64,000 bases of DNA from Eledone cirrhosa (taxonomy: Eukaryota): NCBI GenBank assembly GCA_964016885.1, contig OZ024744.1:105772001-105836000 (forward strand), given 5' to 3'. Position numbers and translations under genes: made by a program. Under the pieces are notes generated by a model, which saw nothing but the letters and a program-made list of their open reading frames with translations, was not told the origin of the DNA and made no database searches. Shown here piece after piece: positions 14,458 to 52,547 of this stretch (positions within the stretch are counted from its first letter, which is position 1; each line of letters starts with the position of its first letter).

Positions 14458-14794
14458 GTAAGTAGATTACACATTAAACTATTTCAAAGCCTATCCAGCC
14501 ATGACCATCCATTCTTTTTCAGAATATGGAGGACCACATCATATTATCTAATGTGTGCTGGCCATATTTAAGATAATAGGTTTTTATTTGAGGGAGATTT
14601 GGCTTCTATTTTTAGCATTCTTCTCTTTCTGTTGTGTGAGTGTATGTATTTGAGTGCCTCTGTGTGTGTTATTTAATCCATGATCAGCCATGGTTGAGTA
14701 GACCTATTATGAAAGACATTCCATATATAACCAACCTATCTGTTGAGACCAGCCTTAATTAAGCATACCTAAGATCAAACCTTAACTGTAACCA

Positions 14795-15110
14795 TGCATG
14801 GCTTAGTGGTTAAAGTGTTGGGCTTGCAATCATGAGGTTGTGAGTTTAATTCCCTGACCAGGTGATGCATTGTGTCCTTGAGCAAGTCACTTTATTTCAC
14901 GTCACTCCAGTTTACTCAGCTGTAGAAATAAGTTGTGACGTCACTTGCGCCAAGCTATATTGGTCTTTGCCTTTTCGTTAGACAATATCGGTGGTATGGA
15001 GAGGGGAGACTGGTATGTATGGGTGACTGCTGGTTTTCCACAAACAACCTTACCCTGTCTTGTGCCTCAAAGGAGGACTTTCATGGTACAAGTCCCATGG
15101 TCACTAATGA
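14795..15110 (+). mobile_element. tRNA-headed SINE (family A head with alternative body); related copy at 20586-20920
   Basis: catggcttagtggtt head, ccttgagcaag core, body shared with the 20586 copy. Confidence 0.75.
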
Positions 15111-15520
15111 AGGCGGCATATTTAAATTGTAAATACCTGACATTCAGTAATTATTTATATCCTCTCATAAATATTCTATTATTGCTTAAGAATATGTTTC
15201 ACCAATCAAATGGCGGAGTTCAATAGCCAATCAGTGGGCCATTAGTACAAGATTGATCGAACTATGAACTCACACCTCAAATACAAATCCGGTCCTGAAG
15301 AAAGCCACACATGGTTATAAACCACTACGTCTAAACATTGTCCCGTTAATGTTTGATATATTTGTGTATATGTTAATCCTTTTTTTTATTTTATAATAAA
15401 TGCTTGGATTTATTCCTTAGAATCTTTCTTAGAGCTTTCCTTGCAGGTGACATGGCGCTTGTCTGGAATTCTTTTCAGACATGACATCTTTATTCTTATT
15501 AGATATATATATATATATAT

Positions 15521-16218
15521 AAAGAAAATTTAGCTCTACATGGCTGAATACAATAAATATAATTTGAGTTTTTCGAATATTAATAATAACATTCAATTCG
15601 TTTGCAATTATGTAAACAAGCCAGAAACATTAGTGTCTGCAGTTCTGTTCGCATGCCAACACAAGAGCAAGAATGAAGTGTTCATTCTACTGACATGGCT
15701 ATAAAATTGAGGCTTGTTTGCATAATTGCAAACGAATCGAATGTTATTATTAATATTCGAAAAACTCAGATTACATTTATTGTATTCAGCCCTGTAGAGC
15801 TAAATTTTCTTTTTTATTTGAATTTGGTAAAGCTGGCCATTGATCGCTCGTATACAGGAAACTGACTGGCCAGTCTGCTGATATGCAAATCTGGCTGATC
15901 AGTGGATCTGCTAATATGCAGATCTGACTGATCAGCCAGTCTGCTAATATGCAAATCAAGCCGATCAGTCACTCTGTATTTTTGAAAATAGCATATATTT
16001 TCACTAGCTCTGACAGTTTGGCAGGTGAACAGTGAACTGTACTGATGAAGGGTGATACCCAGAAACATTAGTGTCTGCAGTTCTGTTCACATGCCAACAC
16101 AAGAGCAAGAATGAAGGGTTCATTCTACTGACATGGCTATAAAATTGAGGCTTGTTTGCATAATTGCAAACGAATCGAATGTTATTATTAATATTCAAAA
16201 AACTGAGATTACATTTAT
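15521..16218 (+). mobile_element. Penelope-like pLTR unit: inverted tail, truncated copy, then tandem copy bearing a hammerhead; flanked by (TA)n
   Basis: 15521-15622 is inverted against ~15711-15812; 15622-15780 is repeated directly at 16060-16218. Confidence 0.75.
16018..16097 (+). ncRNA. Type I hammerhead ribozyme, GUC cleavage triplet (site after 16075)
   Basis: Long stem I (ttggca-gtgaaca-gaactgta / tgcagttc-tgttcac-tgccaa), CTGATGA 16042-16048, stem II gggt/accc, GAAA 16062-16065, stem III aca/tgt, GTC 16073-16075. Confidence 0.8.
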
Positions 16219-16539
16219 ATATATATATAAGACCCGTCCCACCCTTGCAAGCAGGGAAAAGCGGACGTAAAATGATGATGATGATGATGATATATATATC
16301 AAAATGAAGTAACGGAGTCAGAAAATCGTGTTAGTCCCTGTAATTCATGAGCTCAAAGGAAAAAGAATCCTGGGCTCTTCTAATATAAAATAGAGAAGAA
16401 AACTCACAAGAGAGAGAGAGAGAGTGTGTTTATTAGGTTAGAGGGGATACCCTTTCCTCACCTTTCTTAGTTTATAAGTTCCATACGCTAGTGGTATCCC
16501 CTGTAACCTGATAAACACACACTCTCTCTCATGTGCTTT

Positions 16540-16621
<82 letters not shown>

Positions 16622-16796
16622 TATCATCATCGTTAACTTTGGTTGACTTTGCCTTTCATCCATACGGGGTCGATAAAATAAAGTACCAGTAATGCACTGG
16701 GTAATTGCTGGCCTTGTGCCTAAAGTAGAAACAATTATCATCATCGTTAAATGATGTTGATGATGATGATGATGATGATGACATATTATTTTCCAG

Positions 16797-17047
16797 ACAC
16801 AAGAAATGACACTGAAGCGGAATGGTCTGGGACAGCTTGGTTTTCACATACAGGCTGAAGGAATTGTCACTGATGTTGAACATTATGGTTTTGCTTGGGA
16901 TGCTGGAATCAGGAAAGGAACGAGACTAGTTGAAATATGTAAAATAGCTACAATAACGATGACACATGAGCAAATAGTAGATTTACTGCGCACATCATCA
17001 ACAGTTAAAGTGGTAGCCATACCACCAGATGCAAATGGTAATCCAAG
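16797..17047 (+). CDS. SIPA1L: SIPA1L PDZ-domain exon ([18 protein letters not shown]...[22 protein letters not shown])
   Basis: ttccAG / GTaata; close match to recalled SIPA1L PDZ; phase 0-2. Confidence 0.98.
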
Positions 17048-17117: not shown

Positions 17118-17385
17118 TAATTGTTTCTACTTTTGGCACAAGGCCAGCAATTATTCCAGTGTATTACTGGTACTTTATTTTATCGACCCCGTAAGGATGA
17201 AAGGCACAGTTTACCTTGGCGGGATTTGAACTCGGACCATAAAAGTTACGTCCCTTTATGGTCTGAGTTCAAATCCCGCCGAGGTTAACTTTGCCTTTCA
17301 TCCTTACGGGGTCGATAAAATAAAGTACCAGTAACGCACTGAGATAATTGCCGGCCTTGTGCCTATATAAGAAACCATTATTATT
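17118..17385. mobile_element. Head-to-head inverted pair of SINE family B fragments
   Basis: - copy ~17118-17240 and + copy ~17244-17385 of the tctgagttcaaatcccgccgagg...gataaaataaagtaccagt family. Confidence 0.8.
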
Positions 17386-21139: not shown

Positions 21140-21175
21140 TCTTAATGTTTCAGACGCTAGTCCTTCATCAGAAAA
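21140..21175 (-). ncRNA. Minimal hammerhead-like motif in a TA-flanked PLE-like tail
   Basis: Reverse complement tttt-CTGATGA-aggac tagc gtct-GAAAC-ATT-aaga. Confidence 0.5.
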
Positions 21176-42879: not shown

Positions 42880-43622
42880 TATCTCAGCCACAAACCCCGG
42901 TACTGCAGTGTCAAGGACAGTATGATAAACAAATACCGTGGTCTAGTTTTTGTTGACTTTAGAAAAACTTTTGACAGCATAATCAGACATTCTGTTTGAA
43001 ATTCTACCCTTGTATGGCATACTAACAAGACTTGTGGAAGCAATTAAGGCTCTGTATCTCAACACAAGTGCCACTATCATCACCCCTGATGGCTAAACAG
43101 AGTTCTTTGACATCTCAGCAGGTGTGCTGCAGGATGACACTCTTGCCCCATTCCTCTTCATCATTGCCCTAGACTACACCCTGAGATTCTCAATTGACAA
43201 AATCAATAACAAAGGTATAACCATCAAACCCCGCATGAGCTCTAGGCACCCCTCTAAACATCTCACTGACCTTGACTTTGTGGATGACATTGCGCTTGTA
43301 GATTGCCTAGAAAATGCACAACTTTTGACATCTCTCCAGGATGCAGCCACCCTCGTTGGCCTTCATCTCAGTGAGGGTAAAACAGAGTACATATCAAACT
43401 GTACAGGTAACAGCATCAAAGCAATCAACAGCAGTGGCATCAAGCAAGTCGAGGATTTCAAGTATCTTGGGTCCTGGATCATGGACTCTGAGAAGGATTT
43501 CGCCACCAGAAAAGCCCAAGCATGGTCAGCTTGCAACAAGATGAAACGAGTTTGGCACTCAAATCTTTCCAACCATGCCCAAATCAGACTCTTTCAAGTA
43601 ACAATTCAACCAATCTTGCTAT
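42880..43622 (+). mobile_element. Non-LTR retrotransposon RT fragment (RTE-like), pseudogenised
   Basis: VFVDFRKTFDSI, GVLQDDTLAPFLF, DFVDDIAL, VEDFKYLGS; in-frame stops upstream. Confidence 0.85.
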
Positions 43623-47519: not shown

Positions 47520-47913
47520 TATATTAATGAAAGGAATTCCAACTTTATCTGATTTACTCGTTTTATTTACAATCCTTTAAAATTTATAATGGTATTATAA
47601 TGAAGTAATATGCTAGAATATTAAATGTTAAGTGTTAATTGAACAAGTGCTTTCATGCTTTCGCAATCTTCAGGTTCATAATGTGTGGTGACAGTCAAGT
47701 TTGCAATTTTCAACTGAGTTTCAATAGTTGAAAATTGCAAATTTGACTGTCACCACACATTATGAACCTGAAGATTGCGAAAGCATGAAAGTACTTGTTC
47801 AATTAACACTTAACATTTAATATTCTACCATACTATTTCATTATAATACCATTATAAATTTTAAAGGATTGTAAATAAAACGAGTAAATCAGACAAAATT
47901 GGAATTCCTCTTA

Positions 47914-47920
<7 letters not shown>
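47520..47920. mobile_element. Fold-back PLE-like element (~195-bp arms, 10-nt loop) with a minimal hammerhead in each arm, next to (TA)n
   Basis: Arms 47520-47715 and 47726-47920; AATAAA downstream of the motif. Confidence 0.8.
47763..47801 (+). ncRNA. Minimal type I hammerhead (CUU triplet, palindromic stem III)
   Basis: tgaac-CTGAAGA-t tgc gaaa gca t-GAAA-gtac-TT-gttca; mirror copy at 47640-47678 on - strand. Confidence 0.65.
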
Positions 47921-47967
<47 letters not shown>

Positions 47968-48069: not shown

Positions 48070-48770
48070 TAAACGGAAAAAATGAAAACGAAATTTCATT
48101 TCTCACTCATAGTACTTGTCAGTGTTGAACAAAAAGAGCAACGATGGTTGCTAAACACTGTACGGCTTAATTCGGGATGTTTGTTTACAAACACACCGAG
48201 CATTATAATAAATGTTCGGTGAATCAATACGTACATATATATATATGTGTGCATGTATGTATATATATATATATATACTACTGTACGTCTGTATACATAT
48301 ATGTATGTACGTATACATACTTATATTTAAGTAACAGCCGTACTAAGAGTGAGAAATGAAATTTCGTTTCATTTTTTCCGTTTATCGTGTTCGGTGCGCC
48401 CGGCCAATTAACTCACTCGATATGCAAATTAGGCTGCTCAGCCGTTAATATCCATAAGGAAAGTAGATACTTTCAGACGGTCAACCATGTGGCAGGAAGG
48501 TATACGGTGCTGACGAGAGCTAAAAAGCTTGAAACTAGTACATCGTACCTTTGTCAGTGTTGAACAAAAAGGGCAACGATGGTTCCTAACACTGTACGGC
48601 TTAATTCGGGATGTTTGTTTACAAACACACCAAGCATTATAATAAATGTTCGGTGAATCCATACGTACATATATATATATATGTGCATGTATGTATATAT
48701 ATATACATACTAATGTACGTCTGTATACATATATGTATGTACGTATACATACTTATATATATATATATAT
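48068..48770 (+). mobile_element. PLE-like pLTR unit: inverted tail plus tandem copies with a hammerhead, TA-flanked
   Basis: 48070-48115 is inverted against 48340-48384; 48116-48326 is repeated at 48551-48757. Confidence 0.75.
48503..48547 (+). ncRNA. Type I hammerhead ribozyme, GUA triplet (site after 48540)
   Basis: tacggtg-CTGACGA-gagct aaaa agctt-GAAAC-ta-GTA-catcgta; 7-bp stem I, 5-bp stem II, palindromic ACTAGT stem III. Confidence 0.8.
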
Positions 48771-51714: not shown

Positions 51715-51884
51715 ATATATAATATTATATAATATATATATATATATAATATTATATATAATATTATATAATATATATATATATTATATAATATATAATA
51801 TTATATAATATATATAATATATATATATATTATATAATATATATTTATTATATATATTTATTATATATATATATTGTATTATAA

Positions 51885-52522
51885 ATAAATGGGGAAAATG
51901 AAACAAAATTTCATTTCTCACTCTTACTACGGCTGTTACTTAAATATAAGTATGTATACGTACATACATATATGTATACAGACGTACAGTAGTATGTATA
52001 TACATACATGCACACATATATATATATGTACGTATGGATTTACCGAACATTTATTATAATGCTCGGTTTGTTTGTAAACAAATATCCCGAATTAAGCCGT
52101 ACAGTGTAAACAAATATCCCGAATTAAGCCGTACAGTGTAAACAAATATCCCGAATTAAGCCGTACAGTGTTTAGCAAACATCGTTCAACACTGACAAAG
52201 CAACGATGTTCTAGTTTCAAGCTTATTAGCTATCGTCAGCACTGTATACCTTCCGGCCAGATGATTGAACGTCTGAAAGTATATACTTTCCTTATGCATA
52301 TTAATGGCTGAGCAGCCTAATTTGCACATTTAGTGAGTTAATCGACCGGACGGACCGAAACGATACGGCTTAATTCGGGATGTTTGTTTACAAACAAACC
52401 GAGCATTATAATAAATGTTCGGTAAATCCATACGTACATATATCTGTGTGCATGTATGTACATATATACGTACTACTGTACGTCTGTATACATATATGTA
52501 TGTACGTATACATACTTATATT
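51885..52522 (-). mobile_element. Second, inverted copy of the 48068-48770 PLE-like family, itself fold-back; hammerhead with mutated cleavage triplet at 52202-52246
   Basis: Reverse-complement similarity; CTGACGA...GAAAC-ta-GAA; internal 31-bp triplication. Confidence 0.75.
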
Positions 52523-52547
52523 ATATGTTATTATATATATATTATTT

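Follow-up and report, generated by a model that had tools for sequence, protein, structure and literature searches.

The window, i.e., the whole 64,000-nucleotide stretch of Eledone cirrhosa DNA considered here, contains a gene with Rap-GAP and PDZ domains (Pfam), which I take to be SIPA1L-like. Exons 3' of 17047 are assigned to that gene on the basis of frame, with no Pfam support found for them. In the intron just upstream of the PDZ exon a (TA)n tract has received a 698-nt insertion, consisting of 1.37 forward units of a 438-nt repeat plus an inverted, 5'-truncated piece of the same repeat (Table 1). Seen as sequence, this is a 160-nt direct repeat at 438-nt spacing along with a 102-nt inverted arm. 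The unit is non-coding, with no coding match inside, and is numbered here from the base following the predicted ribozyme cut (u1, i.e., 15638 and again 16076). Only one whole ribozyme is carried by this copy, with a second represented by its 3' half; both that partial hammerhead copy and the membership of the locus in a repeat had been passed over by an earlier, sequence-only reading.

Table 1. Features of the host intron and of the insertion that it carries, in window coordinates
Feature	Position	Strand	Basis or detail
Host intron, GT..AG, phase 0	14458..16796	+	inferred from frame
(TA)n target tract, left flank	15503..15520	.	sequence
Inverted 5'-truncated piece, u74 to u175, long 3' end (tail)	15521..15622	-	head-to-head join, 2-nt overlap with forward piece
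Forward piece, 598 nt = 1.37 units (u422, whole unit, to u143; short 3' end)	15621..16218	+	predicted cut site crossed twice
3' half of second hammerhead (GAAAC..GUC, helix I 3' strand)	15621..15659	+	C17 equivalent 15637; without CUGAUGA
One 438-nt monomer, cut site to cut site (u1-u438)	15638..16075	+	predicted circle
32-37-nt 'tail' between family 3' ends u143/148 and u175-180	15781..15812	+	sequence
Internal 33-nt minisatellite of unit	15861..15976	+	copy number varies among loci
Type I hammerhead	16018..16097	+	sequence, family covariation
Long helix I overall	16018-41/16076-97	+	G16024-A16091 mismatch inside
Proximal helix I, 6 bp	16036-41/16076-81	+	then 3x1 loop (UGA/U) 16033-35/16082, distal helix
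Hammerhead core CUGAUGA	16042-48	+	C3 = 16042; extra A16049 after
Helix II GGGU/ACCC	16050-53/16057-60	+	loop GAU; A16061 after
GAAA of hammerhead core	16062-65	+	sequence
Helix III ACA/UGU	16065-67/16072-74	+	3 bp, loop UUAG
Self-complementary ACAUUAGUGU	16065..16074	+	self-duplex of 10 bp at -8.8 kcal/mol; CAUUAGUG within it also binds core in predicted off-fold
Predicted cut site, triplet GUC	after C16075 (C17)	+	sequence
(TA)n target tract, right flank	16219..16229	.	sequence
PDZ exon	16797..17047	+	PF00595, E 5.4e-09

Other repeats occupy the window as well. Another hammerhead repeat family is present twice, at 48108-48761 (+; core 48510) and 51725-52543 (-; core 52239), with a 433-nt direct-repeat period, inverted pieces, a GUA triplet and helix II starting from a G-U pair, its architecture being like that of the element studied here. 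A further hammerhead-like core is found at 21171 (-), and also at L177:1131, with an extra A after A9, its helix I 5' strand seemingly being lost in the window copy. At 35053-38723, within the inferred gene span, is a tRNA-derived tandem array: a 92-bp satellite of about 40 copies with 95% matches, 11 units of which, read on the minus strand, pass the gathering threshold of the Rfam tRNA model. Retrotransposon ORF remnants at 43097-43621, 54692-56128 and 57344-58132, as labelled by eye, represent a LINE-type RT twice and a gypsy-like pol.

The hammerhead itself had been described as canonical, with a complete core but with A-A in place of the usual G10.1-C11.1, and as lying on the sense strand upstream of the PDZ exon. 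Core, mismatch and position all hold: CUGAUGA, GAAA and GUC are present, A16049 and A16061 are seen opposite each other at 10.1/11.1, and C17 is found 722 nt before the start of the exon. What is expected of a type I hammerhead is indeed seen, i.e., CUGANGA, GAAA, A15.1-U16.1 and an NUH triplet, as well as three helices with helix I open, these supported by covariation over 50 copies. The label 'canonical', however, has to be dropped. There is no Rfam hammerhead match, either at the gathering score or at E <= 10, and no purine10.1-pyrimidine11.1 pair beside the core, an A preceding G12 in 2,600 of 2,668 family cores. With this second extra A in place, no G10.1-C11.1 pair of the usual kind directly adjoins the core. 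The proposed stem I survives in part, with its G-A mismatch standing and its 2-nt bulge giving way, as comparison over the family favours a probable 6-bp helix I followed by a 3x1 internal loop, which would resemble a canonical helix I.

Folding of the window hammerhead beats that of 200 of 200 shuffles (z = -4.37). The predicted lowest-energy fold (ViennaRNA) is not the hammerhead but one in which UACUGAUG is paired to CAUUAGUG, the active fold of the monomer lying 6.6 kcal/mol above the ensemble in that model. Activation as a dimer is not supported by the model: a double-hammerhead fold that recruits the half-ribozyme upstream, with its cut at 15637, costs +8.1 kcal/mol, or +46 if the inverted arm is included, and that in a natural tandem (L030) +11.3 kcal/mol. 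In the model it is the 102-bp inverted arm that blocks the two-copy fold of the window, and only the self-complementarity of the 10-nt helix III speaks for rescue through dimers. As tertiary contacts are left out of this model, its energies argue for slow, rather than zero, cleavage at the window. A reading of the motif as a miRNA hairpin was also rejected, Rfam scores being far below threshold.

Across the 3.0-Gb genome the exact 34-nt core is found 1,104 times (556 forward, 548 reverse; 0 for a reversed control), a looser core 2,600 times, and a downstream 24-mer (u60-83) 1,946 times. A genome search gave 2,660 candidates, and the 40 of these that were scored are 96-100% identical. Over 598 positions the window copy carries 10 differences from the majority of the sampled copies, about 1.7% private change, and thus is young. 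With a non-coding unit of 438 nt, a type I hammerhead and GC < 50%, the family falls within the 150-450 bp of non-LTR retrozymes; the circle predicted for the window monomer has a folding energy of -153.9 kcal/mol, with a z near -11 in comparison with 40 shuffles. Several copies appear to have a longer unit, which was ruled out, the extra 184 nt being a SINE-like repeat in its own right, bounded by separate flanks. That repeat has inserted repeatedly into one site within the unit (ATTATTAATA, u109-120; e.g., L002:1122-1305), and is found in the window at 16620-16740 and 17150-17370. No description of the family was found in a search of mainly open-access literature, and A-A variants or the family itself may already be listed elsewhere.

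The A-A foot of helix II is a fixed state of the family rather than damage private to the window copy, a possibility that the frequency given above rules out. Only 3 cores in the genome go without the A before G12, and the A-A form spans the helix II loops GAU, AAU, AAUC and AAUG. In loci sampled independently of the core, the minor-allele rate of the core is 23/970, and an older subfamily (218 matches, 75-91% identity to the window unit) has kept the core and both extra As. Among 50 copies, 94.2% of helix cells are paired, 8 pairs show two-sided change and none of 500 shuffles reaches the cell score, with helix II being fixed by the search pattern and kinship of the sequences inflating the shuffle test. 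One helix I pair, for example, is U-A in 33 and G-C in 8 of 50 sequences (9 of these cells being unpaired), and one in distal helix I is A-U in 23, G-U in 13 and G-C in 11; helix III displays no covariation among the 50 copies. The window motif therefore is real and not a chance occurrence, as seen in the shuffles, in 1,104 exact cores vs. none in the control, and in the compensated changes of helix I. PLE (Penelope-like element) hammerheads characteristically have an extra base after A9 (PMC4209133), and the axolotl HHR_Amex2 tolerates a mismatched base pair where its helix II begins (PMC7229834).

Insertion anatomy was read from loci chosen by the 24-mer, because selection by ribozyme was to be avoided. 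The first 100 listed of the 1,946 matches, all on contig C1, yielded 84 loci comprising 170 pieces. In this sample 3' ends cluster at u143 (29), u148 (27), u175 (7) and u180 (35), i.e., as a short and a long 3' end about 35 nt apart, and 5' ends are scattered across the family. (TA)n directly follows 91 of 124 canonical 3' ends. Inverted head-to-head partners accompany 5'-truncated pieces at 58 of the 84 loci, with 44 of these 58 pairs combining a short with a long 3' end, i.e., one end with a tail, vs. 2 short-short, 1 long-long and 11 with an unclassified end. Such features are among those ascribed to PLEs in the portion of PMC8557442 drawn upon here: 5' truncation, partial tandems, an adjacent inverted copy, a 30-40-bp tail at one end, and microsatellite targets. 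In vitro, moreover, AT-rich DNA has both of its strands cut by a PLE protein, with RT starting at two internal, tail-defining sites (PMC11167929). Given the PLE insertion anatomy over the 84 loci, the family is most likely a non-autonomous, PLE-mobilised retrozyme.

Pieces may extend for more than a unit. After exclusion of 37 of the 170 pieces (SINE-cut, short or with odd 3' ends), the predicted cut site is crossed once in 69 and twice in 6 of the 133 kept. Tandem ribozymes, i.e., two cores 430-450 nt apart, exist at 56 places genome-wide, none of which is beside another at that period, and extended arrays of the kind known from classical retrozymes were not seen. The longest piece among 13 loci inspected, their 5' ends again scattered, is 1,212 nt; long copies run into another turn of the unit, not into an ORF, i.e., they are without the RT + GIY-YIG ORF of an autonomous PLE. 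Between two passes within a piece, 10 of 75 polymorphic sites show a difference, and between inverted partners 35 of 142 do (127 loci; tandem vs. inverted, p = 0.054), references being 37% in random pairs and a background of about 6%. The low within-piece differences fit one template that was read more than once, and those between inverted partners weakly suggest that each inverted insertion drew on two RNAs. In the window the two passes disagree at 2 of 4 of these sites, a result that one circle does not account for unless later change or a jump is allowed. Two pairs of cores at wide spacing (L061, L062) and a cluster of three dimers (L314), considered as full-length PLEs, proved to be unrelated PLE fragments or a 2-kb satellite without an ORF. 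That satellite (C3:17746500-17756400; unit about 2.06 kb, holding a two-core piece) is present in four copies and adjoins an assembly gap; it is a possible source locus of the element.

Whether the ribozyme has cut in vivo may be judged from 5'-end positions. At first pass, 37 of 104 pieces stop within u436-u20, as do 4 of 9 at second pass, vs. 58 of 680 (8.5%) for background in equal bins. With end-position uncertainty included, 31-40 of 146 ends fall in u1-20 and 4-6 in u419-438; for solo pieces (n = 30) these are 10 and 0. Paired ends, minus 8 fold-back pairs, number 15 in u1-20, 4 in u419-438, 6 in u21-40 and 15 in u41-60. A sharp spike exactly at u1 is absent genome-wide, with a step seen instead: junction patterns number 33 at u1, 30 at u9 and 9 at u431, with 24 of 30, 29 of 30 and 5 of 9 inspected, respectively, classed as junctions. 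This pile-up just 3' of the predicted cut suggests in-vivo cleavage, and that the family's ribozyme does so cleave is a reasonably good bet. RT stalling in helix I or microhomology of the u6-24 quasi-palindrome could contribute.

Indeed, such contributors might be the whole of it. It is possible, if not the reading that I would choose, that the element is the same but its ribozyme inactive or irrelevant, the pile-up coming from an RT stall in the 20-bp helix I or from a microhomology hot spot at u6-24, a rival that touches the ribozyme step only and otherwise overlaps the best explanation. The A-A at 10.1/11.1, the predicted off-fold, the step rather than spike, and fold-back within u1-30 in 8 of 58 pairs are all as this would have it, as is the failure of 8 of 9 Xenopus retrozyme dimers to cleave in vitro in the results available from 10.64898/2026.07.22.740005. 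Against inactivity, however, the core and both extra As have been kept over four loop II variants, with changes in helix I compensated; ends fall at u1-16 rather than at the helix entry, u17-24, expected for a stall; and several solo copies (L182, L237, L248) begin exactly at u1. From the available part of PMC11167929, an Anolis PLE has no reads at the ribozyme cut site, and its ribozyme is dispensable for insertion in vitro. For the present family a type I hammerhead of likely descent from active ribozymes is indicated by core, covariation and the 5'-end pile-up of sister copies.

An autonomous driver may be sought among PLEs of the same genome, in which RT + GIY-YIG ORFs are present. One PLE family there has a minimal hammerhead of its own, two 3' ends and (TA)n flanks; that hammerhead is located about 400 nt after the RT + GIY-YIG ORFs in L086, L087, L092 and L098, and the window holds, at 47520-47921 (cores 47673, -, and 47768, +), an inverted pair of 3' ends of this family, one short and one tailed. 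Could the 438-nt unit then be the pseudo-LTR of an undetected autonomous PLE, its copies being 5'-truncated insertions of that element? All insertion traits are PLE-like, and the GIY-YIG search scored only 150 of 10,596 candidates, with the unit found as terminal repeat in 0 of 40 GIY-YIG loci from these. Matches to a set of PLE ORFs lie near 34 of 248 loci, and at one of the 248 (L278:762-1680) a GIY-YIG C-terminus runs, without change of orientation, into a unit of the older subfamily near u151. That join nevertheless falls inside coding sequence, ahead of the stop seen in L093, and may represent a template switch to a driver mRNA; long copies, up to 1,212 nt, furthermore continue as the same 438-nt unit rather than as an ORF. 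The pseudo-LTR reading hence is unlikely.

Least credible, indeed quite improbable, is co-option of the window copy as a cutter of host pre-mRNA upstream of the PDZ exon, altering splicing or output, for although it is in sense orientation, with its core intact and 722 nt from the acceptor, it is a young copy with about 1.7% private change, one of thousands, in a gene with other repeat-borne hammerhead cores on both strands (four, two per strand, plus one doubtful), and its active folds, that with two copies being blocked, are disfavoured at the locus. The sequence-only reading's proposal of such a cutter is thus left unsupported. As the conformer predicted for the window is inactive (+6.6 kcal/mol to activate), efficient cutting of pre-mRNA there is doubtful, and as the copy is one of thousands in a mobile repeat, it probably is no purpose-built gene switch. 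Nor, in its own genome, is it single copy and outside of a repeat, as a domesticated intronic hammerhead would be.

What is most likely present, then, is a non-autonomous retrozyme, the RNA of which is predicted to be ribozyme-cut, that was inserted into (TA)n of the intron by a Penelope-like RT/GIY-YIG protein. The unit, its copy number, the anatomy of its insertions and the PLE ORFs in the genome are directly observed, and the cycle built upon these would run as follows. Rare two-ribozyme copies would be transcribed, with self-cleavage after GUC freeing a 438-nt monomer, which likely is circularised or else bridged through template jumps. The PLE protein would cut both strands of (TA)n DNA, and reverse transcription would be primed at two internal positions, located 143/148 and 175-180 nt beyond the cut in the 3' direction. 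Each cDNA would extend back to a stop, often a cleaved 5' end, or otherwise read through into more than one unit, and two cDNAs would be joined head-to-head via microhomology. The window copy would be a passive product, with the host intron cut slowly at most. In a more ambitious version, which can be offered only tentatively, the fixed A-A hammerhead with its built-in off-fold cleaves in the germ line, and the insertions record the whole cycle, i.e., cut 5' ends, more-than-unit RT around a circle, and twin priming on two RNAs, for which a dimer of the Penelope protein would use the two tail sites.

With the metazoan non-LTR retrozymes of Mytilus and of axolotl (Rtz_353/HHR_Amex2), so far as these are described in the available part of Cervera and de la Pena 2020 (PMC7229834), the family shares a non-coding unit of 150-450 bp, GC < 50%, a type I hammerhead, thousands of copies and co-occurring PLEs. 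It differs in that its copies are mostly shorter than two units and dispersed (56 two-core places), with PLE inversion and tail marks; in having A-A rather than the U-U of HHR_Amex2 at the base of helix II, a ribozyme whose monomer, the mismatch notwithstanding, cleaves 22% in 1 h and whose dimer does better; and in a circle predicted to block its own core, which would be unusual for metazoan retrozymes as that source presents them. With PLEs bearing pLTR hammerheads (PMC4209133; PMC8557442; Anolis Poseidon PAc, PMC11167929; each as available in part) it has in common 5' truncation, partial tandems, an inverted 5' partner, a tail and microsatellite targets, along with the extra nucleotide after A9 and a palindromic helix III. 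Unlike these, it is without an ORF, its helix I is long rather than a minimal 4-5 bp, and no pLTR homology was found for the window unit in 40 GIY-YIG loci.

Vertebrate retrozymes have been proposed, in the available text of bioRxiv 10.64898/2026.07.22.740005, to be PLE-mobilised, non-autonomous derivatives, with a PLE-retrozyme link proposed also in what is available of PMC7229834; a general retrozyme model is that of PMC6765202, likewise drawn upon in part. As in those vertebrates, dispersed monomers here accompany rarer dimers, and about 44% of the Xenopus copies are intronic (10.64898/2026.07.22.740005, same text). The evidence differs in kind, co-occurrence and pLTR homology in that text vs. 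junction anatomy and 5'-end positions here, without driver homology in the 40 GIY-YIG loci. The family thus probably belongs with the metazoan non-LTR retrozymes and is mobilised in the manner of a non-autonomous PLE. HH9 and HH10 of amniotes are single-copy, conserved, isolated, intronic type I hammerheads. Like those, the window hammerhead sits on the sense strand of an intron; unlike those, it belongs, as a young copy, to a large repeat family and matches no Rfam hammerhead model.

Considered as a gene switch within an intron, the window copy is most likely ordinary repeat debris. The A-A core variant escapes Rfam, and such ribozymes therefore are likely undercounted by descriptor searches. 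As a family, these repeats bear on two questions: what machinery mobilises animal retrozymes, for which PLEs have been proposed but evidence on the life cycle is limited (PMC7229834 and 10.64898/2026.07.22.740005, as available in part), and whether PLE-type hammerheads cut in vivo (PMC11167929, likewise). To these the family brings PLE marks at insertion junctions and a step in 5' ends at the cut site, and, young and uniform as it is, it would lend itself to PLE assays in vitro as a simple substrate.
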